Shown piece by piece: positions 4,511 through 17,307 of a DNA stretch of 32,000 nucleotides. The stretch lies in assembly GCF_003086415.1 (NCBI RefSeq), contig NZ_QEFP02000014.1, positions 3,496 to 35,495 on the forward strand, in the 5' to 3' direction. Under the pieces are notes generated by a model. The model searched no databases. It had not been told where the DNA came from and was given only the letters and a program-made list of their open reading frames with translations. The translations under genes and the position numbers were made by a program. Origin of the DNA: Candidatus Nanobsidianus stetteri. Lineage in GTDB: Archaea; Nanobdellota; Nanobdellia; Nanobdellales; Nanobdellaceae. Every line of letters begins with the position of its first letter. The stretch's first letter is position 1.

Positions 4511-4594
4511 TGCGGCGGAGGGGATTTGAACCCCTGGCGGATCTTATCCAATCGGACCTAAACCGACCCCCTTTGACCTCTCGGGCACCGCCGC
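4511..4594 (-). tRNA. tRNA-Leu (anticodon UAG), class II with long variable arm
   Basis: Reverse complement is GCGGCGG TG CCCGAGAGGTCAAAGGGG GTCGG-TTTAGGT-CCGAT, variable arm GGAT-AAG-ATCC, AGGGG-TTCAAAT-CCCCT, CCGCCGC, A. No CCA is encoded and there is no intron. Confidence 0.9.
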
Positions 4595-9662: not shown

Positions 9663-10850
9663 ATGGCAAAGAGTTCACCACCTTACATAAAATATATGAT
9701 ACATGCGTCAGTATATATTGATGGAGTAGTTGAGAAACCTGATGTAATAGGAGCAATATTTGGACAAACAGAAGGATTGTTAGGATCAGAAATGGATCTA
9801 AGAGAATTACAGAGATCTGGAAAAGTTGGAAGAATAGATGTGGATCTTAAAGTAGAAAATGATAAAACAATTGGGGAAATTAGGATACCAACAAGTTTGA
9901 ATAGATTTGAAACTTCATTAATAGCTGCAACATTGGAAACTGTAACTAGAATTGGACCAACACATGCAACAATAAAAGTACAAAAGATAGAAGATATAAG
10001 AAAAACAAAGGTACAGCAAATATTAGAAAGAGCTAGAGAATTATTGACAAAATTAATAAATGAGGAATTACCAGATCCAAAAGAGTTACTATTATATTTA
10101 GAATATTCATATAATATGAAATCATTAATTGAATATGGACCAGAAAAATTGCCTGCGGGGCCGGATGTAGATAAATCTGAAGAAATAATATTAGTAGAGG
10201 GAAGGGCTGATGTTCTAAATTTATTAAGATATGGAATTACAAATGTAATAGCATTAAATGGATTAAATGTACCAAAAACAGTAATTGATTTATCAAAGAA
10301 AAAAATAATAACAACATTCTTTGATGGTGATAGAGGTGGGGATTTATTGGTAAAAGAATGTATGTTAAGTGGTGTTGATATTGATTTTGTAGCAAAACCT
10401 GAACCTGGAAGAGAAGTTGAAGAATTATCTGGAAAAGAAATATTAAAAGCATTAAAGAATAAAATATCATTTGATCAGATTAGAGCATATTATGAAAAAT
10501 TGGAAGGAACTACTGAAGATATAAAAAATATTAGAAGCGAAAAGAAAATAAAGGATCCAATATTACAAAAATTAAAATCATATATGAATGATATATTTAA
10601 AACAGATCAAGCTTTATTATTGGATGAAAACTTTAATATATTAAATAAAGTACCTGTAGAAAAATTGGGAGAAATAATATTGAAACATAATAATGTAGCA
10701 TATTTAGTAATGGATGGAATATTAACAAGGGAATTATTGGAATTAATAGAAAAGAGTACAAACATAAAATATGTTGTATGTATAGATAGTATACAAAAGA
10801 GTAGTAATAAGGTAAAGATATATACAATAAGCGATCTTGATAAAGTCTAA
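9663..10850 (+). CDS. dnaG: Archaeal DnaG primase (TOPRIM)
   Basis: YIKYMIHASVYIDGVVEKPDVIGAIFGQTEGLLG..DLRELQRSGKVGRIDV is the conserved archaeal DnaG N-terminus. TOPRIM motifs are present (ILVEGRADV, FFDGDRGGD). Confidence 0.9.
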   Translation: MAKSSPPYIKYMIHASVYIDGVVEKPDVIGAIFGQTEGLLGSEMDLRELQRSGKVGRIDVDLKVENDKTIGEIRIPTSLNRFETSLIAATLETVTRIGPTHATIKVQKIEDIRKTKVQQILERARELLTKLINEELPDPKELLLYLEYSYNMKSLIEYGPEKLPAGPDVDKSEEIILVEGRADVLNLLRYGITNVIALNGLNVPKTVIDLSKKKIITTFFDGDRGGDLLVKECMLSGVDIDFVAKPEPGREVEELSGKEILKALKNKISFDQIRAYYEKLEGTTEDIKNIRSEKKIKDPILQKLKSYMNDIFKTDQALLLDENFNILNKVPVEKLGEIILKHNNVAYLVMDGILTRELLELIEKSTNIKYVVCIDSIQKSSNKVKIYTISDLDKV

Positions 10851-11320
10851 CTTTTTTCTACTTGATAATTTATTATTCCACTAACAGAATTATTTCCTAC
10901 AGATGAATAATATAATGTTAAATATAAAATTCCACCGAGTTTTTCCCATTGGACAATTGTTAATCTTGTCTGATCATCCAATTCAAAATTATATTGCAAT
11001 GTAATATGATTTTCTGGTTGTATTATATATATATTCTGTAAAAAATTTCCTGAAGTTATTATTGATGATGTTTGATATGAATTTTTTAACCCTAAATATG
11101 AGAAATATATTTCTACAGAATAGTTATTTGGGTTATTTACATTAAAGGAAAAATAATTTCCATTTACGCTAAAATTTGATATATATAAATTATATATATT
11201 TTCAGGATTTACCATTTTATTTCCAACAAAATATGTTGAATATGAATAATATATTATGTAAATTACTGGTATGGAAAATGCTAGAAATAATATATTTAAT
11301 ATTATCTTTTCTCTATCCAT
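10847..11320 (-). CDS. N-terminally membrane-anchored hypothetical protein
   Basis: 157 aa. MDREKIILNILFLAFSIPVIYIIYY forms the helix, followed by an Asn/Tyr/Ser-rich domain that looks beta-rich. No Cys. Composition is like the surface island. Confidence 0.6.
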   Translation of the reverse strand: MDREKIILNILFLAFSIPVIYIIYYSYSTYFVGNKMVNPENIYNLYISNFSVNGNYFSFNVNNPNNYSVEIYFSYLGLKNSYQTSSIITSGNFLQNIYIIQPENHITLQYNFELDDQTRLTIVQWEKLGGILYLTLYYSSVGNNSVSGIINYQVEKS

Positions 11321-11325
11321 AATAT

Positions 11326-11922
11326 ATGGATGAATTTAATAAATTAAAAATATATCATATGAAAAAACTTGAGGAAGCTAAGGAAAAATATTTAGCAGAT
11401 CAACCTATATATTATATTCTAGATCTTATTAATTCATTAGATTTCTTTTTTACAACATCTTCATGTGCAGGTAGGATAATTTTATTAAAAATACCAAAAA
11501 GTGGGAAAAAATTTGAGGCCGAATTTCTATTTAAATCCCATTATTATGTAAATTTTTATTATATATGGAATAAATTATTAGAAGTATATAAAAATTATGA
11601 TGAGAAAATATACTTTAAACAAGAACCATTTATTTTGCATGTATCTTCAAAAAATATAGAAAGGGCATATGAACTATTAAATATTGCAAGAAAATCCGGA
11701 TTCAAACATTCTGGAATATTTTTGATAAATGATAAAAGGGTAATGGTTGAAATTGTTGGAAATGAAAAAATTGAAACAATTGTATCAAAAAATAGAAAAT
11801 TATTGGTAGATAAAGAATATTTTTATAATTTAGTAAAAGAGGCAAATGAGAAGTTAAAGAATGTAAGAAAAAGAATAAATATATTTTATAAAAATCTTCT
11901 ATCCTATTATATAACAAAATGA
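11326..11922 (+). CDS. taw3: tRNA wyosine-derivative methyltransferase Taw3 (TYW3 family)
   Basis: FFFTTSSCAGRIILL matches the TYW3 signature SSC(S/A)GRI, and the length of about 200 aa is typical of archaeal Taw3. Confidence 0.7.
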   Translation: MDEFNKLKIYHMKKLEEAKEKYLADQPIYYILDLINSLDFFFTTSSCAGRIILLKIPKSGKKFEAEFLFKSHYYVNFYYIWNKLLEVYKNYDEKIYFKQEPFILHVSSKNIERAYELLNIARKSGFKHSGIFLINDKRVMVEIVGNEKIETIVSKNRKLLVDKEYFYNLVKEANEKLKNVRKRINIFYKNLLSYYITK

Positions 11923-13392
11923 ATTATCACAATAATTATTCATTGTTTCATTATTTATTCCTACAAATTCATATAAATAATAATTGTATGTAAATTGATT
12001 ATTTATATTTAATTCTGAAACATTACATGTAGCATTAAAGTAATAATTTCCATTATTATTATAACATTCAGATATGGTTGTACATAAATTTGATAAATAA
12101 CTTTCCAATGAATTTTGTGAATTTGAACAGTCAGAAGAATTTTTGTACGGACCAAATTGCAATGTTTCATTATTTATAGAGCAACTTACATTATTATAAT
12201 TTATCTGAATATCTACAGGTATTAAAGCTGGATAATATCCATCAGTATAATATGCATAATTTTCTAAAATATTTTCTACAAAACTTGTACTAACTTCTAC
12301 ATTTTTTTCATTAATAATATTTACACCAGTTATATTATACCAATATCCATTGAATATGTTGATTTTATTCAATACTTGATAATTTAACTTTGATAAAATG
12401 GCACTTACATTATTTAAACATTCCTTCATATATTCACTATATATACTATTTACTATACATTGATTATTTACAATCTGCCCAATTGATTCACATGGTATTA
12501 CGATTGTTACATTTGTAATATTTGGATCTTCTACTGGCAAAAGTTGAGATGTATATAGATCTAAAACATAATAATACGGATTATTGAATGAAAAATTTAA
12601 ATATAAATTATCTCCGATTGTTTCTTCAGAATATGCACTTTGATATAAATCTATATAATTTGATTGATTTATTAAATTGTTATATATAAATTGAAATGTT
12701 TGATTATATAAATAATCTATTAATTCATTATAATATAATAAAAAGGGATATATTGAATAACCTATTTGATTATTTAATTCAGGGAAAGTTAAACTTCTTT
12801 CATATTTATTTAATACAAAGAAATAATATTGTGGATTTGATAATACAAAATTATTAGAACCATCATAATAGAAATCCTGATATGAAAAATTTGCATGTTT
12901 AAAATTTAAATTTCCATTTAAATATCCGATTTCATTGTTTAAATCTTGACTTACAATGTTTTTAATACTAAAAAATATATTTTCAATATTTTGATAGTTG
13001 TTTACATTATTTAAAGGAATTACTGGGACACATAATGAATAAATTATGTTATAATTATTTCCATTATCTTCTATATTGGTTAGATTAAATAAAAAAGGAA
13101 CTTCACATTGAGAATAATAATTTGGAATATTATTTCCAAATATATAATTTATATTATATGTAGATCCTTTAAAAATATTTGTAAAAAGATTATTTAATAA
13201 ATTATATCTAATATCAAATGGTATATAAACAAATAATATATATAAAAATCCCTGATATGCAATATAATCTTCACTTAAATATTTTAAAGATTGAGTTGCA
13301 ATTTGAATCTGGGAATTTAAATAAAATATACCAAAGAGAACTAAAATTATTACTCCTAAGAATAATGCTACTGGTGCTAAAGATGTTTTCAT
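11899..13392 (-). CDS. Surface-island protein (497 aa), N-terminal anchor or pilin-like helix, 12 Cys
   Basis: MKTSLAPVALFLGVIILVLFGIFYL is followed by an Asn/Tyr-rich ectodomain with many N-x-S/T sequons and 12 Cys (hand count). It is the last gene of the minus-strand operon, and its 3' end overlaps the taw3 3' end by 24 nt. Confidence 0.75.
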   Translation of the reverse strand: MKTSLAPVALFLGVIILVLFGIFYLNSQIQIATQSLKYLSEDYIAYQGFLYILFVYIPFDIRYNLLNNLFTNIFKGSTYNINYIFGNNIPNYYSQCEVPFLFNLTNIEDNGNNYNIIYSLCVPVIPLNNVNNYQNIENIFFSIKNIVSQDLNNEIGYLNGNLNFKHANFSYQDFYYDGSNNFVLSNPQYYFFVLNKYERSLTFPELNNQIGYSIYPFLLYYNELIDYLYNQTFQFIYNNLINQSNYIDLYQSAYSEETIGDNLYLNFSFNNPYYYVLDLYTSQLLPVEDPNITNVTIVIPCESIGQIVNNQCIVNSIYSEYMKECLNNVSAILSKLNYQVLNKINIFNGYWYNITGVNIINEKNVEVSTSFVENILENYAYYTDGYYPALIPVDIQINYNNVSCSINNETLQFGPYKNSSDCSNSQNSLESYLSNLCTTISECYNNNGNYYFNATCNVSELNINNQFTYNYYLYEFVGINNETMNNYCDNSFCYIIG

Positions 13393-13423: not shown

Positions 13424-13903
13424 TTAAGTTGAATAACCACTAGTATAATTTACATAAAAGTTATATAATACTGTTGGTGGACAAACATAGAATGTATATG
13501 ATTCACCATTTAAATAAACATAATAATTTATATATTCTTTATTTGGACATGCACCAATGATTGTATTATTATTAAAATAGAATGATAAAATTGTAGCGGA
13601 ATCATTTAAATAATATAACTCTTCATTTGCCAATTCATTTATTATATAATTATCCAATGCTGTATTATTATAAAATCCTGCGTATATATCTATTACAGGT
13701 ACAGTTACATTATCAAAATAAATTAAAGAATCTAAAAAACCATTTGCAGATTTATATTCAATACCAACAGCATTTAAACCTGCAATATTATTTAGTGTTG
13801 GATTTCCATAGGAAAATATATTAAAGATAAATATAAATAGTAGAACTATAACAATAATTACTGCAGCAATAAATGATAAAAAGAATCCAATTTGTATTTT
13901 CAT
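13424..13903 (-). CDS. Surface-island protein (159 aa), N-terminal anchor or pilin-like helix, 2 Cys
   Basis: Begins MKIQIGFFLSFIAAVIIVIVLLFIFIF. Its start overlaps the upstream stop as ATGA (13900-13903). Confidence 0.75.
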   Translation of the reverse strand: MKIQIGFFLSFIAAVIIVIVLLFIFIFNIFSYGNPTLNNIAGLNAVGIEYKSANGFLDSLIYFDNVTVPVIDIYAGFYNNTALDNYIINELANEELYYLNDSATILSFYFNNNTIIGACPNKEYINYYVYLNGESYTFYVCPPTVLYNFYVNYTSGYST

Positions 13904-14748
13904 TGTATTTGAGTAATTTTACATGAAGATATATTTATTTGGCCTCCAGCAATTATATTACATGTTTCATTATATATTCCATTCATATAAAGATTTCCTA
14001 CACCGTATAAAGATACTATTACTGGTTCTCCACTATCATATTCTGGTAAAGTAATATAATATGATGCTATTGGTTGAATATATACTTCAGTATAATATAC
14101 AGTTCCATAAGTTGCAGTAGAATTGAGTATTTCAGTATTATTTATAAATTGATAGTTTTGATACATATATTCTGTCTCATTATATATATATAAACTATAA
14201 TTATAGAAATAATTGATTAAAAATTGGTTTAAAGATGGTAGATTTTCGTATGTGTAATCTACATTATAAATATTATATGCAACATAATATGGATTAACAT
14301 TTATATCATTTTCAAAACTAAGGTTATATGGATCATATGAATATGAATTACTTATATTGTTAATATCATAGAAAAAGAAGTATATATAATCGTCATAAGA
14401 GAAATTTAAATATGTATATATAACTTCATTTGATTGATTTGATTCATTAGTAAAATAATCTAATGTTCCTGAGATATTCATAAAGCATTGTTGATATACA
14501 TTATTATATTCATTGATAATATTTGGATTGGGAGCATAAAATAATAATAATGGATTTCCTGTATCTTCATATAAACAATAATTTAATCTATCAATTAATA
14601 AACTATTTGTAAATTGCTGATATGTATATTCAGAATACGATTCAATATTAAATAATGCATATAATATTGCTACAATAAAAAATGCGAATATTATAACAAC
14701 CGCAGCAGCAATATATTCAATTATATCTTTTAAAGATAATGATCTCAT
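13900..14748 (-). CDS. Surface-island protein (282 aa), pilin-like N-terminus, 4 Cys, 12 N-x-S/T sequons
   Basis: MRSLSLKDIIEYIAAAVVIIFAFFIV resembles the archaeal class III signal pattern (basic residue, small residue, then x-S-L-x-acidic, then a hydrophobic helix). ATGA overlaps at both ends. Confidence 0.75.
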   Translation of the reverse strand: MRSLSLKDIIEYIAAAVVIIFAFFIVAILYALFNIESYSEYTYQQFTNSLLIDRLNYCLYEDTGNPLLLFYAPNPNIINEYNNVYQQCFMNISGTLDYFTNESNQSNEVIYTYLNFSYDDYIYFFFYDINNISNSYSYDPYNLSFENDINVNPYYVAYNIYNVDYTYENLPSLNQFLINYFYNYSLYIYNETEYMYQNYQFINNTEILNSTATYGTVYYTEVYIQPIASYYITLPEYDSGEPVIVSLYGVGNLYMNGIYNETCNIIAGGQINISSCKITQIQ

Positions 14749-15857
14749 GATGTAGAAGATAATACTGATACATTTAAATATGGTTGGCCTCCAGATTGTA
14801 CACCCACCTTTGATAAAATAATAAACTCTGGAAATACTTGATTACCATTATTATCTACATTTCCTAAATCTAGTTTGAATATATTATCCTGTGAATTATC
14901 TTGTGAATTATAAATGTATGTAAAACTTGTATCACATAAATAATTATTACTACATCCATTATAAAATGTAAACTCGGGATTATAATATATTGACAATGTT
15001 AAATATGGTTGATATACTGTATATTTTCCATTTGGAATTGACAAAAAGAGCCAATTAGTGCTTTGTTGTATAAATTGATTATAATAGCAACTTGCATATG
15101 GACTCGATGTAGCTTGCCAATATTGATATAAGGTAATTGATGCAGTAAATGCTAAATTAAATGCAAAACCAGCTACAAAATCAGCTGGAGGTGGTAAAAC
15201 TTCATCTAATATCATATCTCCAACCTGCATTATAGTAAATTCTGCAGTAGACCACAAGGTAGGTCCCACAGAAGATTGTAATGCATTAAATATATCTCCC
15301 CATATGTTATAGTTTCCGGATGCATATTGTAAAAGTGTAGATTGATATGTATATAATCCATATGTACCAGCAGCAGCTATTGCTGTTTGTTTTGCAATTT
15401 GAGATGAAGATCCAAATACTTTATTTAAAGCATTTAGTAAAGATGTTGTTTTACCACCATACTTTAATCCTGGCAGATATGAAAATACTTCAGCCATAAA
15501 AGAATTTAATGCATCATCTGCAAGTTGTTGCCATAGATCATTTACATAACATTCTCCAATACTAACTAAAAAATCATTATTATTATATAAAGGAATAAAT
15601 AGGGCGGATGATTGTATTGGAGGAATTATCCTAAATTCATAGAAAAATACTGGAGCATTTGTTACAAAAAATGCTGCTGTCATATTCCCAGGTTCTGATG
15701 TTGAATATGTAATAAAACCAGCAACTTCCAATATTAAATAAGGATTATGTGTACCAAATATTCTTGCAATAATATATGGAAAATATATTCCTATTAGTGA
15801 TACAATTATTAAAAATATTGATGCTATTATTGCATCTAATAATTCATCAACATCCAT
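14745..15857 (-). CDS. Surface-island protein (370 aa) with an N-terminal helix and internal Ala/Gly/Thr-rich hydrophobic segments, 4 Cys
   Basis: The N-terminal helix is MDVDELLDAIIASIFLIIVSLIGIYF. Internal segments include QTAIAAAGTYGLY and ADFVAGFAFNLAFTASITLYQYW. One nt separates it from the upstream stop. Confidence 0.75.
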   Translation of the reverse strand: MDVDELLDAIIASIFLIIVSLIGIYFPYIIARIFGTHNPYLILEVAGFITYSTSEPGNMTAAFFVTNAPVFFYEFRIIPPIQSSALFIPLYNNNDFLVSIGECYVNDLWQQLADDALNSFMAEVFSYLPGLKYGGKTTSLLNALNKVFGSSSQIAKQTAIAAAGTYGLYTYQSTLLQYASGNYNIWGDIFNALQSSVGPTLWSTAEFTIMQVGDMILDEVLPPPADFVAGFAFNLAFTASITLYQYWQATSSPYASCYYNQFIQQSTNWLFLSIPNGKYTVYQPYLTLSIYYNPEFTFYNGCSNNYLCDTSFTYIYNSQDNSQDNIFKLDLGNVDNNGNQVFPEFIILSKVGVQSGGQPYLNVSVLSSTS

Positions 15858-15858
15858 A

Positions 15859-16800
15859 TTATGTAGAAACAGTTTCTCCTATGTATATATTAATATTTGC
15901 TGTATTTCCGTTACTATTTACCTCTATATCCATTACTGTTGGTGGTAAAGAACCTGCAAAATATAATAATGGAAAGTTTATTTGGAAGTATTGGATAATA
16001 TAAGTAAATGTTTCAGAACTTACAATTTCACCTTCAAGATTACTAAGCTGTATTTGAGGATTCTCTGGAAATCCTGACAATTCTACACATACTGATGGAT
16101 TATATGGCAAATTATTGTTATTTGAATTTATATTTGAACTTGGAGCACAAGATATAGAGCCACTTTCTTGATATGTATTACCATTTTCATCAATTGTTGA
16201 TGTAAATGTGCATCCATTATCATTACATGTTATTGTTGTATCATTTACTATAGTAAGAAAGAATGAAGAGGATTCTGGAAAGAAATAATCTATTATATTT
16301 ACAAAAATTTGGAGACCACCTAAGTTCTTATTATTAGTAGAATATGCTAATAAACCAGCATTATCATTTAATCCTTGTATGTTTATATTTATTTGATTTA
16401 TATTACTATTTAAGGATATTTGTTTTACTAATTTACAAAATACTAATGCTGGTGCAAATATAATAGTATTTCCATTATCTGTCGTAGAAACATTCCAATA
16501 TACTACTTTAACGGATAAGAGACCTACAACCTGATTTGGAGGAAAACAATGATATAATTGCAAATACCATCCATTATTGTTTGTCAATACAAAAACATAA
16601 TTATAGTCATAATTATTTATAAATACTTCTCCATTACCTCCATTATTTATATCATTAGCAATTGAATTTAAATATCCAATATATTTTGCATCATTTCCCA
16701 TAGCAACTCCAATAAATGTCACAATAATAAAGTATATTAAAACTACCAATACAATTAATACTATTATATCAAAAATTATTCTAAGAAAATCTCCTCTCAT
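15859..16800 (-). CDS. Surface-island protein (313 aa), pilin-like N-terminus, 6 Cys
   Basis: MRGDFLRIIFDIIVLIVLVVLIYFIIVTF is followed by an Asn-rich ectodomain. Its ATG at 16800 lies 1 nt after the stop (16802-16804) of the upstream micro-ORF. Confidence 0.75.
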   Translation of the reverse strand: MRGDFLRIIFDIIVLIVLVVLIYFIIVTFIGVAMGNDAKYIGYLNSIANDINNGGNGEVFINNYDYNYVFVLTNNNGWYLQLYHCFPPNQVVGLLSVKVVYWNVSTTDNGNTIIFAPALVFCKLVKQISLNSNINQININIQGLNDNAGLLAYSTNNKNLGGLQIFVNIIDYFFPESSSFFLTIVNDTTITCNDNGCTFTSTIDENGNTYQESGSISCAPSSNINSNNNNLPYNPSVCVELSGFPENPQIQLSNLEGEIVSSETFTYIIQYFQINFPLLYFAGSLPPTVMDIEVNSNGNTANINIYIGETVST

Positions 16801-16801
16801 A

Positions 16802-16963
16802 TTATCCTAATCCAGATTGATTTAATATTTTATATCCTACGCTTGTTACATTTGTCTGTATGGAGTTACTTGCTATGTAATAATAAAATATTATAGCTAA
16901 AATAATTATTACTATTGCAATAATTAAAAATATTAAAAAGTTTATTGAATTATCAGCCTCCAT
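16802..16963 (-). CDS. Micro-ORF, 53 aa mini pilin-like protein (not in the ORF track)
   Basis: Hand translation gives MEADNSINFLIFLIIAIVIIILAIIFYYYIASNSIQTNVTSVGYKILNQSGLG. Its ATG lies inside the end of the upstream gene (ATGGAGGCTGA, 11-nt overlap). It shares the S-I-N-F plus helix motif with the 30757 and 30446 ORFs. Confidence 0.6.
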   Translation of the reverse strand: MEADNSINFLIFLIIAIVIIILAIIFYYYIASNSIQTNVTSVGYKILNQSGLG

Positions 16964-17138
16964 AGTTGTTATTATTTATACTATTTACAACATTTGTGCC
17001 ATTTGTTTGCGGTATACTATTAAATAAATTTGCTCCACCTTTAAAATAAAAGTACATAAATATTGCTAATAATACTAGAGCAACTATAAATAATATTATT
17101 GCTACTAAAAATGTATTTACTTGTGTTTTTTTATCCAT
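16953..17138 (-). CDS. Mini pilin-like protein, 61 aa
   Basis: MDKKTQVNTFLVAIILFIVALVLLAIFMYFYF is followed by an Asn/Gly/Ser tail. It overlaps both neighbouring micro-ORFs. Confidence 0.65.
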   Translation of the reverse strand: MDKKTQVNTFLVAIILFIVALVLLAIFMYFYFKGGANLFNSIPQTNGTNVVNSINNNNYGG

Positions 17139-17277
17139 TTCCCCCTATTAATTGATATTGAGCAAATATATTTATATTTAGCCCTAATTTTGGTCCCAAT
17201 ATAACAAAAACAAATATTAATATTAATACAGTAAATATCAATGCAAGAATTATCTTTAGAAGTTCTCCAGTTTCCAT
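17131..17277 (-). CDS. Micro-ORF, 48 aa single-helix membrane or pilin-like protein (not in the ORF track)
   Basis: Hand translation gives METGELLKIILALIFTVLILIFVFVILGPKLGLNINIFAQYQLIGGNG. Its stop overlaps the next gene's start (AATGGATAA). Confidence 0.5.
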   Translation of the reverse strand: METGELLKIILALIFTVLILIFVFVILGPKLGLNINIFAQYQLIGGNG

Positions 17278-17307
17278 TATAAATCTAAAAACTTTGCAAT
17301 TTATAAA

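Follow-up and report, generated by a model that had tools for sequence, protein, structure and literature searches.

The Flp pilins of bacterial Tad pili are very small one-helix proteins that occur in tandem, in the company of the pseudopilins TadE and TadF and the large TadG. A further system, Bas, is among those cited in PMC3875500. In it, large proteins are localised to the cell surface by means of three small pilin-like membrane proteins, whose N-termini are similar to their own; the Bas genes lie together with those of the ATPase BasE and the platform protein BasF, and canonical PibD sites are present. PVAP, a protein of ~92–98 aa, builds pyramids alone. It is the single-helix protein of the Sulfolobus virus-associated pyramids (PMC11420986). 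The Epd mini pilins of Methanococcus maripaludis (MMP1685/EpdE, MMP0528, MMP0903 and MMP1283; Pfam Class_IIIsignal/DUF361) are made as precursors of 67–76 aa, and the mature pilins of 54–63 aa have one N-terminal hydrophobic helix and a short N-glycosylated tail; MMP1685 has 74 aa, and 62 aa when mature (PMC3875500). The Epd leader, of 5–13 aa, is basic and Gly-terminated, with Gln at +1 and Glu at +5, and is matched by DUF361 (PMC3875500).

The locus analysed here lies in a window of 32,000 nucleotides from Candidatus Nanobsidianus stetteri, by which we mean the whole stretch of DNA under study. It contains three micro-ORFs in tandem:

17131..17277, minus strand: micro-ORF A, 48 aa; METGELLK, a 19-residue uncharged core, then GPKLGLNINIFAQYQLIGGNG
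16953..17138, minus strand: micro-ORF B, 61 aa; MDKKTQVN, a 24-residue core ending FYFKGG, and an N-rich tail with the conserved sequon NGT
16802..16963, minus strand: micro-ORF C, 53 aa; MEADNSIN, a 24-residue core ending FYYY, and a tail with the sequons NVT and NQS

The resemblance to the Epd pilins is that of tiny one-helix proteins (48, 61 and 53 aa), with several small genes alongside larger pilin-like proteins and with conserved sequons in the tails of B and C, where glycosylation is predicted. In contrast to Epd, neither DUF361 nor Pilin_N matches any of the three above noise, position –1 is occupied mostly by T or S, and the +5 Glu is missing from B and C. Moreover the N-terminus of A is acidic, B and C can be fused, and there is no gene for an EppA-like peptidase or an ATPase nearby. 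Like the Flp genes, those of the trio are tandem, tiny and of one helix, and adjoin larger proteins with similar hydrophobic N-termini. However, inspection of the alignments finds the G/XXXXEY motif in no A, B or C orthologue, and the trio has neither tadV, tadA, tadB or tadC as neighbours nor any profile similarity. The Bas system is functionally close to the explanation that we favour, yet A-B-C has no neighbouring ATPase or platform genes and no canonical PibD sites. PVAP is relevant because the Nanobdellales build a cone-shaped attachment organelle, and PVAP is itself a very small N-terminally anchored protein that gives rise to a large cone-shaped envelope structure. But PVAP is viral and acts alone, and A, B and C have no sequence relationship to it. 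A viral origin of the trio was rejected, since there is no PHROG match and there are no relatives among viral contigs.

The micro-ORFs and their operon

The three frames had been described in an earlier note, two of them from translation by hand. Their coordinates and translations are exactly reproduced, all on the minus strand, and the mutual overlap described there amounts to 8 nt between A and B (17131–17138) and 11 nt between B and C (16953–16963). A gap of 1 base separates the stop codon of C from the next ATG (at 16800). The layout of leader, helix and tail also holds, each protein having a short polar N-terminus, an uncharged core of 19–24 residues and a polar tail. Directly past the core the helix is broken, by a GG that is invariant in B and a GP that is nearly invariant in A. 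On the plus strand there is no ORF of at least 30 aa in 16802–17277. The trio is embedded in a run of genes on the same strand:

17308..18528, minus strand: P423, the upstream partner, 406 aa from the ATG at 18528, with a TTG-extended ORF to 18579
17300..17307, minus strand: TATA-box-like TTTATAAA, 23–30 nt upstream of the A ATG and directly past the stop codon of the upstream gene
15859..16800, minus strand: P313, 313 aa, the downstream partner, N-terminally anchored (MRGDFLRIIFDII...) and syntenic in all lineages
14745..15857, minus strand: P370, 370 aa, with an acidic, A-like N-terminus, MDVDELLDAIIASIF
13900..14748, minus strand: P282, 282 aa, with the nearly invariant N-terminus M-R/K-S/A/G-LSLKDIIEYI
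13424..13903, minus strand: P159, 159 aa, with an N-terminal Q-I-G-F-F-L-S invariant in 11 genome orthologues and two invariant Cys near the C-terminus
11899..13392, minus strand: P497, 497 aa, the final gene of the run, N-terminus MKTSLAPVALFLG...

The 30-nt spacer that contains the TATA-like element is nearly identical in eight close genomes; two positions differ, and both flank the TATA box. Four distant lineages have an AT-rich TATA-like octamer at about the same distance (TTTTAAAT, TTTATATT, TTATAAAT and TTTTTAAT). We regard the element as the putative promoter of a leaderless or near-leaderless A-B-C transcript.

The operon is of the envelope type, comprises about ten genes and is confined to the Nanopusillaceae (Nanobsidianus, Nanopusillus, Nanobdella, YN1 and deeper sister lineages). 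Its large proteins are fast-evolving, N-terminally anchored and rich in sequons. P423 has an N-terminal helix followed by a helical and alpha/beta body; it is 100% identical to a Ca. Nanobsidianus stetteri protein and has 106 homologues, all Nanopusillaceae-like. No family could be assigned to any of these proteins. Scans of A, B, C and all the large partners against Pfam, NCBIfam and PHROGs returned sub-threshold transmembrane noise alone, and PDB sequences searched with profiles of the B, P423, P282, P313, P370 and P159 families gave nothing below E 0.1. P313 has no match in Pfam, NCBIfam, PHROG or the PDB. The AF2 model of P423 (mean pLDDT 58) has no Foldseek match in the PDB at E ≤0.001, and that of P159 (pLDDT 50) is not usable; both models are too poor to inform on partners. 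Exact look-up of the 61-aa and 313-aa products in the contig index gave no match.

A second pairing of a micro-ORF with a large anchored protein is present in the window:

23772..23960, minus strand: P62, a fourth micro-ORF of 62 aa, a paralogue of C, with a 4-nt overlap with the start of the 879-aa gene
21136..23775, minus strand: P879, 879 aa, large and N-terminally anchored, paired with P62; no match in Pfam or PHROG

The paralogy is plain from hhalign (97%, E 7.6e-11 for C against P62). A micro-ORF directly upstream of a large anchored protein is thus a recurrent arrangement, found as C/P313, as P62/P879 and as a 61-aa/500-aa pair in the locus L014. Within the trio the hhalign values are 4% for A-B, 37% for A-C and 74% for B-C. 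We do not call A, B and C a single family, because this mutual similarity is weak and driven by the helices. Periodicity of conservation along the helices is uninformative, as inspection of the alignments shows I, L, V and F exchanging throughout.

B and C are encoded as a single polypeptide in four independent fusion representatives (P0174–P0177) and in L014/L015. The layout in L014 is A, followed by the B-C fusion. The fusion protein has two hydrophobic helices with a strongly basic loop between them. Since gene fusion is a classic sign of interaction, we take this as a sign that B and C interact.

Selection and conservation

A, B and C are genuine protein-coding genes under purifying selection. 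First-order Markov simulations of the window put the chance rate of ATG-ORFs of 48 aa or more at 0.27 per kb per strand; 16802–17277 holds three such ORFs where ~0.13 would be expected. The dN/dS ratio is 0.23 for A (27 distinct sequences), 0.22 for B and 0.27 for C, and dN is smaller than dS in 887 of 901 pairs. The earlier note had suggested that the frames be compared in related genomes for conservation and for synonymous versus nonsynonymous change, and on both counts they behave as genes. The large neighbours tested have the higher ratios of 0.52 (P423), 0.58 (P313) and 0.50 (P370), and that of P159 is 0.36. The same disparity is seen in identity to distant genera, at 50–75% for A, B and C compared with 27–49% for the large operon proteins, and once again in L014, where B and C retain 47 and 40% identity against 22–27% for the large proteins. 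Few products of the operon are as constrained as A, B and C.

The order and sizes of A-B-C are held directly after a P423 homologue in L001–L010, and the same is true of 24 metagenome loci as far as their DNA extends. In every lineage, start codons overlap with stop codons or adjoin them. All the Nanopusillaceae lineages recovered, including Nanobdella and YN1, have the trio, save for two deeper lineages with changes; in one of these B and C are fused, and in another an unrelated 62-aa ORF fills the third slot. The A and B slots are retained in L012. Orthologues of A are found in 12 genome and metagenome lineages, with a positional equivalent besides in L014. A profile of B finds only 33 proteins among 5.8 billion, and in a second search 8 representatives among 1.84 billion, all from Nanopusillaceae-like sources.

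The frames are short, rich in hydrophobic residues and of low complexity, and there are no peptides on record for A, B or C, all of which might be expected if the frames were open by chance in this AT-rich genome, or if the sequence were non-coding. In the proteome table of N. acidilobi the entries Nps_00225 to Nps_00255 carry no abundance values; detection in that study covered only about a third of the proteome, and tryptic sites are few in these proteins. Yet the reading frames stay unbroken in lineages where the neighbouring proteins have fallen to 22–36% identity, and this together with the excess of ORFs and the dN/dS values makes the chance reading vanishingly improbable; it is effectively refuted by the conservation data. 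Transcripts are recorded for 735 of the 736 CDSs of Nanobdella, where the counterparts of A, B and C are MJ1_0043, MJ1_0044 and MJ1_0045, and hence at least two of the three are transcribed. An Rfam scan of the window gave tRNAs alone (two), and a non-coding RNA was dropped as a candidate.

Pilins, assembly factors or a membrane complex

The earlier note had seen in the trio possible filament subunits of the island, or else small membrane regulators. Part of this stands, in that A, B and C are genuine single-helix membrane proteins of the surrounding cluster, and their size does match that of the smallest known archaeal pilins, such as Methanococcus MMP1685 and the other N-glycosylated pilins of 54–63 aa (PMC3875500). 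Read in this way, B and C, and less likely A, would be miniature type IV pilin-like subunits akin to Methanococcus Epd or bacterial Flp. A divergent prepilin peptidase would cut after a K/R-G/S/T site, a nanoarchaeal type IV pilus ATPase/TadC pair encoded elsewhere would polymerise the subunits, and the role of minor pilins or of adhesins at the tip would fall to the larger operon proteins. Indeed, the N-termini of B and C resemble short class III signal peptides. Those of B have K/R, then G/S/T, then Q/D/E and x-S/N ahead of the hydrophobic helix, as in the MAYHKG-QISTFLV of Nanobdella, so that the +1 residue is Q, E or D; their N-side net charge of 0 to +2 is compatible with a prepilin. Distant C orthologues and P62 start MKS/MRN-D/N-I-S-I-D. 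Several large partners begin with M-K/R-G/S, and the helix that comes next has a conserved acidic residue; the invariant QIGFFLS of P159 belongs here too. All orthologues of the trio share with prepilins an uncharged hydrophobic segment of ~20 residues, their cores being 18–27 residues long. The helices are far better conserved than the large operon proteins, and a conserved helix with a variable remainder is also typical of pilins. The tail sequons are conserved, as NGT, NGS and NIS in B, and as NVT, NLT and NAT together with NQS, NQT and NRS in C, where they remain sequons despite the varying middle residue. Finally, the literature describes pilus ATPases and FlaJ/TadC homologues in the Nanoarchaeota, including two type IV pilus systems and four FlaJ/TadC homologues (Jarett et al. 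2018, PMC6142677), and an orphan nanoarchaeal pilus ATPase (Makarova et al. 2016), of which B and C may be the 'missing' cognate pilins.

Several of the pilin tests nevertheless go against such a reading. The FlaFind-type prepilin pattern, which Szabo et al. reportedly set out in 2007 as [KRDE][GA][ALIFQMVED][ILMVTAS]x3, is found in 1 of 37 orthologues (0 of 14 for A, 1 of 12 for B and 0 of 11 for C), the sole match being the B of Nanobdella (KGQIST). This is also the sole protein with Gly at –1, the residue being mostly T or S elsewhere. Position +5 is taken by F in B and by N or S in C, and Glu is conserved in neither. Pilin_N (PF07790) matches the window's C only (1 of 11 members), with an E value of 0.073 that does not rise above noise; Class_IIIsignal (PF04021) matches no A, B or C, and the NCBIfam models of archaeal pilin and flagellin N-termini give transmembrane noise. 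All 14 orthologues of A have a net N-side charge of –1 to –2 and a C-side charge of +1 to +2, which inverts the prepilin arrangement; in C the N-side charge of –2 to 0 is weak, and the window's own C begins MEAD, with no basic residue. The two-helix B-C fusion of a sister lineage is hard to square with pilin subunits that are extracted separately, and the GG of B and GP of A interrupt the helix right past the core. Pilus machinery close by was rejected: there is no Walker A signature of a VirB11-type ATPase within 10 kb in 15 loci and the window, and no ATPase, platform or peptidase gene within 10 kb at any locus. Two of the nanoarchaea lack a recognisable prepilin peptidase. Overall we consider it unlikely that these proteins are pilins, though the idea retains some substance for B and C.

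The explanation that we prefer, and to which we would give about an even chance, is that the three proteins belong, as membrane-embedded subunits in equimolar amounts, to an envelope complex specific to the family and built with the large anchored surface proteins. The trio would be transcribed from its own promoter and translationally coupled; the overlapping or abutting start and stop codons fit equimolar synthesis. The three helices would then assemble in equal amounts into a conserved intramembrane bundle, which would anchor a surface complex in the membrane or serve as its base there; the large operon proteins would make up the variable parts of this surface complex, those that face the host. 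B and C would have their short tails on the outer side, where N-glycosylation is probable. That A, B and C physically associate, that their complex touches the large proteins, that the tails are glycosylated and how the proteins are oriented in the membrane are all inferences. On the last of these the signals conflict, the strongly basic loop of the fusion being set against an outside location of both the B and C tails, and the charge bias is weak in B and C. The recurrent placing of a micro-ORF directly upstream of a large anchored protein, and the strong conservation of the micro-proteins beside fast-evolving large neighbours, would also be expected of dedicated membrane assembly factors or regulators, for example helpers in the insertion, glycosylation or sorting of the adjacent large proteins. 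But the translational coupling and the fusion of genes point to amounts that are stoichiometric, not catalytic; a dedicated putative promoter lies directly upstream of A, and the Pfam, NCBIfam and PHROG scans show no similarity to a known insertase, chaperone or regulator family. We think such a role improbable.

The attachment organelle and small-protein annotation

Cryo-tomography of Nanobdella aerobiophila, YN1 and YN4 reveals a cone built of repeating densities, which lies on the outside of the symbiont membrane in place of the S-layer, together with a portal of ~20 nm and a tube of 7–8 nm into the host; which proteins make up these structures is, by the authors' account, not known, and none has been assigned to this interface (PMC11104419, PMC11420986, 10.64898/2026.06.04.730037). 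It is a speculative and rather doubtful proposal that the trio and its operon are the building blocks of this Nanobdellales organelle. The micro-proteins would then form a conserved membrane lattice or thin tube, and the large variable proteins the host-facing layers.

The Nanopusillaceae are obligate ectosymbionts with genomes of ~0.6–0.8 Mb, which must grip the host and take its lipids, nucleotides and amino acids. An operon that is restricted to the family, is retained in reduced genomes and encodes membrane-anchored surface proteins only is a concrete and testable candidate for the interface. A, B and C rank with the products of this operon under the strongest constraint, and so are natural handles for tagging, antibodies, targeted proteomics and multimer modelling. 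Should they prove to be pilins, this would close a gap, nanoarchaeal pilins having so far gone unidentified, and they would represent a pilin class that escapes current predictors. Either way, small-ORF cut-offs conceal conserved envelope components in such genomes. The absence of two of the three frames from the ORF track, to which the earlier note had drawn attention, is true of the track but reflects merely its length cut-off; proteins with the exact sequences of A, B and C are already in NCBI as MCC5447200, MCC5447199 and MCC5447198, all annotated "hypothetical protein".

Three conserved micro-ORFs

Re-reading the sequence from 16500 to 17600 alongside the ORF listing gives three micro-ORFs, whose coordinates and translations are exactly those claimed in the earlier note.

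17131-17277, minus strand, micro-ORF A, 48 aa
16953-17138, minus strand, micro-ORF B, 61 aa
16802-16963, minus strand, micro-ORF C, 53 aa

The frames overlap as described, A and B sharing 8 nt and B and C 11 nt, and a single base lies between the C stop codon and the ATG of the next gene. The shape proposed for them (polar leader, one long helix, polar tail) is also found in all three, with an uncharged core of 19-24 residues between polar ends. At the window G+C content of 24-25%, first-order Markov simulations give 0.27 chance ATG-ORFs of ≥48 aa per kb per strand, so that ∼0.13 are expected by chance in the A-B-C stretch compared with the three observed; the ORF listing has no open frame of ≥30 aa on the opposite strand there. 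The three are not new to the databases. Their exact sequences are the hypothetical proteins MCC5447200, MCC5447199 and MCC5447198, and the orthologues in Nanobdella aerobiophila are MJ1_0043, MJ1_0044 and MJ1_0045; they are thus annotated already, but uncharacterised, and a literature search found no mention of either set of locus tags. The automated names 'PerM permease' and 'MnhB subunit' attached to B elsewhere are evidently transmembrane-helix artefacts.

How widely is the trio conserved? Scanning one genome per species with a profile of the upstream protein P423 gave 11 loci, including Nst1, N. acidilobi, several Nanopusillus MAGs, N. aerobiophila MJ1, strain YN1 and other Nanopusillaceae. 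A, B and C lie directly downstream, in the same order and at near-equal lengths, in 10 of these, even where the flanking protein has just 35-36% identity; the eleventh and most divergent locus (31%) has A and ends shortly beyond it. Metagenomes added 24 loci, with the frames intact wherever the DNA is present, apart from one C shortened to 38 aa (L017, 262-378). There are ambiguous bases in the neighbouring gene of that contig, and the short C probably reflects faulty assembly, not a pseudogene.

Nei-Gojobori analysis of 27-29 distinct nucleotide sequences per gene gave dN/dS values of 0.23 for A, 0.22 for B and 0.27 for C, with dN below dS in 887 of 901 pairs overall. The comparison of frames and of synonymous with nonsynonymous change that the earlier note had proposed thus comes out in favor of the ORFs: A, B and C are real, strongly conserved genes. 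The large proteins of the same operon are much less constrained (dN/dS 0.50-0.58 for the three neighbours tested). Identity between genera is 50-75% for the micro-proteins versus 27-49% for the large ones, and in the deeper lineage L014, where DnaG retains 72% and FBPase 56% identity, it is 47% for B and 40% for C versus 22-27%. Exhaustive HMMER search of 1.84 billion representatives with a B profile returned just eight proteins, all of the B family, and an indexed search returned 33, from which the family appears to be restricted to Nanopusillaceae-like archaea. In the most divergent lineage (L012) the position of C is occupied by a 62-aa ORF (MKNKNKKSVNAPGWAIGLII..., 10168-10356) that does not evidently resemble it, so C is less widely retained than A and B; the gene downstream of that slot (355 aa) differs too.

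The operon and its expression signals

The trio belongs to a minus-strand run that reads P423, A, B, C, P313, P370, P282, P159 and P497, the numbers being lengths in amino acids. Synteny of this arrangement extends from Nanobsidianus to Nanobdella, YN1 and L014. Beyond a conserved TYW3-like gene of opposite orientation lies a further anchored protein, P157.

17308-18579, minus strand, P423 ORF, 423 aa from a mechanical TTG start
17300-17307, minus strand, TATA box TTTATAAA, 23-30 nt upstream of the A ATG
11326-11922, plus strand, gene of ∼198 aa between P497 and P157 in every lineage examined; L014 counterpart called TYW3-like
10847-11320, minus strand, P157, small, N-terminally anchored, just outside the operon

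The deposited P423 and all its homologues begin at the ATG at 18528, giving 406 aa (MKSISDS...), and this protein is 100% identical to a Candidatus Nanobsidianus stetteri protein. P157 is under far tighter constraint (dN/dS 0.16, 58-60% identity in distant genera) than the large proteins of the operon.

At the N-terminus all operon products have a short polar stretch and then one hydrophobic helix. N, S, T and Y are abundant in the large ones, which also have conserved cysteines and numerous N-x-S/T sequons. Searches of Pfam, NCBIfam, PHROGs and PDB sequences gave no match to any of the products, and the published table for N. acidilobi assigns them no arCOG. The AF2 models of P423 (pLDDT 58) and P159 (pLDDT 50) are too weak for classification, and that of P423 matched no PDB fold.

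The 30-nt spacer 5′ of A is near-invariant in the Nanopusillus/Nanobsidianus group, its two variable positions both flanking the TATA box, and an equivalent AT-rich octamer lies at about the same distance in four distant lineages. In archaea such geometry marks a promoter for leaderless or near-leaderless mRNA, and we infer one here. Across all lineages the start of B and that of C each overlap the stop codon before it, implying translational coupling, and the three proteins are apparently made in equal amounts. Reads were obtained for 735 of 736 CDSs in the Nanobdella transcriptome, so at least two of the three orthologues are transcribed there. The N. acidilobi shotgun proteome has no values for any operon protein; this is weak negative evidence, since only a third of that proteome was detected and the proteins are poor tryptic substrates.

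B-C fusions and a fourth micro-ORF

Half of the eight B-profile representatives (P0174-P0177, 111-124 aa) are fusions of B and C. The fused gene belongs to a deeper sister lineage, where L014 (5544-5888) and L015 (188-532) carry it in an otherwise identical operon. Gene fusion is a classic sign of two proteins acting in physical contact. The fusion proteins have two hydrophobic helices, and the B module is without the basic N-terminus it once had. KSKRSD is retained in the loop, whose net charge is +3 to +5, and sequons occur in both loop and C-tail, a topological contradiction.

Upstream lies a second micro-protein with a large partner.

23772-23960, minus strand, P62, 62 aa, fourth micro-ORF, start MKSNISIDMVIII...
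21136-23775, minus strand, P879, 879 aa, N-terminally anchored, start overlapped 4 nt by P62

By hhalign (97%, E 7.6e-11) P62 and C are clear paralogues, and P62 runs into the start of P879 much as C abuts P313. The pair is kept in L001, L003, L005, L009 and L010. L014 probably has it too, with a 61-aa ORF followed by a 500-aa ORF repeating the pattern of micro-protein then large anchored protein. Two plus-strand genes (409 and 390 aa, 18621-21121) separate the pair from the P423 operon; L014 has both clusters side by side on a single strand. The 409-aa product, which carries a signal peptide and is anchored C-terminally, is found just in the closest relatives, suggesting a lineage-specific insertion.

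A proposed envelope complex, or possible mini pilins

We put at about even the chance that A, B and C are conserved intramembrane subunits of an envelope complex that the operon encodes, because they are strongly constrained, apparently equimolar, coupled and, in one lineage, fused, amid fast-diverging anchored surface proteins. Their helices would form the membrane base of the complex and the large proteins its variable exterior. The faster evolution of the latter agrees with the excess of non-synonymous polymorphism reported in 'hypothetical external' nanoarchaeal proteins (PMC6142677). Sequons persist in the tails of B (NGT, NGS, NIS) and C (NVT, NLT, NAT; NQS, NQT, NRS) while the middle residue changes, which suggests that these tails may be external and glycosylated; the strongly basic loop in the fusions is at odds with this.

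The main alternative, that B and C work like mini pilins, seems to us rather improbable. The earlier note was right about size, as the three match the smallest experimentally studied archaeal pilins: the Methanococcus mini pilin MMP1685 has 74 aa (62 when mature, N-glycosylated) and others have 54-63 aa when mature (PMC3875500). Starts of B orthologues run K/R, G/S/T, Q/D/E, then x-S/N, with a textbook-looking site in Nanobdella (MAYHKG-QISTFLV); distant C orthologues and P62 begin MKS/MRN-D/N-I-S-I-D, the N-x-S-x-D start of P62 coming nearer than anything else in the region to the Methanococcus mini-pilin motif QxSxE; and several large partners begin M-K/R-G/S and have a conserved acidic residue near the start of the helix. 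Nanoarchaea are also described as having a type IV pilus ATPase without identifiable pilins, and several FlaJ/TadC homologues. Yet a FlaFind-type pattern occurs in just 1 of 37 orthologues of A, B and C, Pilin_N and Class_IIIsignal give no match above transmembrane noise, and neither the window nor any of 15 loci has a VirB11-type ATPase signature within 10 kb; these tests do not bear out the mini-pilin identity. Moreover, B and C lack the +5 Glu, C of the window starts MEAD, and the helix is ended right after its core by an invariant GG in B and a nearly invariant GP in A. A is net acidic on the N-side and basic on the C-side in all 14 orthologues, predicting an orientation opposite to that of a prepilin, the B-C fusion is a two-helix protein, and the literature reports no recognisable prepilin peptidase in two nanoarchaea. 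For these reasons we do not file the trio as pilins. It is an orphan set of micro membrane proteins, specific to the family.

Two overlapping small ORFs (64 and 67 aa) beside AlaRS in L012 (6360-6750) have N-termini, MKKKSISLSLETLVIII... and MVRVKKSVSLTMEKLILLI..., that look more pilin-like than A, B or C; neither matches Pfam.

Could the proposed envelope complex belong to a known structure? Cryo-tomography of Nanobdella, YN1 and YN4 reveals an attachment organelle, a cone of repetitive densities that replaces the S-layer on the outer face of the symbiont membrane, with a portal and a 7-8 nm tube into the host, and its proteins are explicitly stated as unknown (PMC11104419, PMC11420986, 10.64898/2026.06.04.730037). 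The operon is a reasonable candidate, encoding family-restricted, membrane-anchored surface proteins in exactly those organisms; we nevertheless consider it a long shot that the trio and its operon are parts of that structure.

The window also carries the archaeal housekeeping genes for AlaRS, ArgRS, Nop56/fibrillarin, class V FBPase and DnaG. ARAGORN calls a tRNA-Leu(TAG) (4511-4594, minus strand) that Rfam does not report at its gathering threshold; the other two tRNAs of the window are reported by Rfam.
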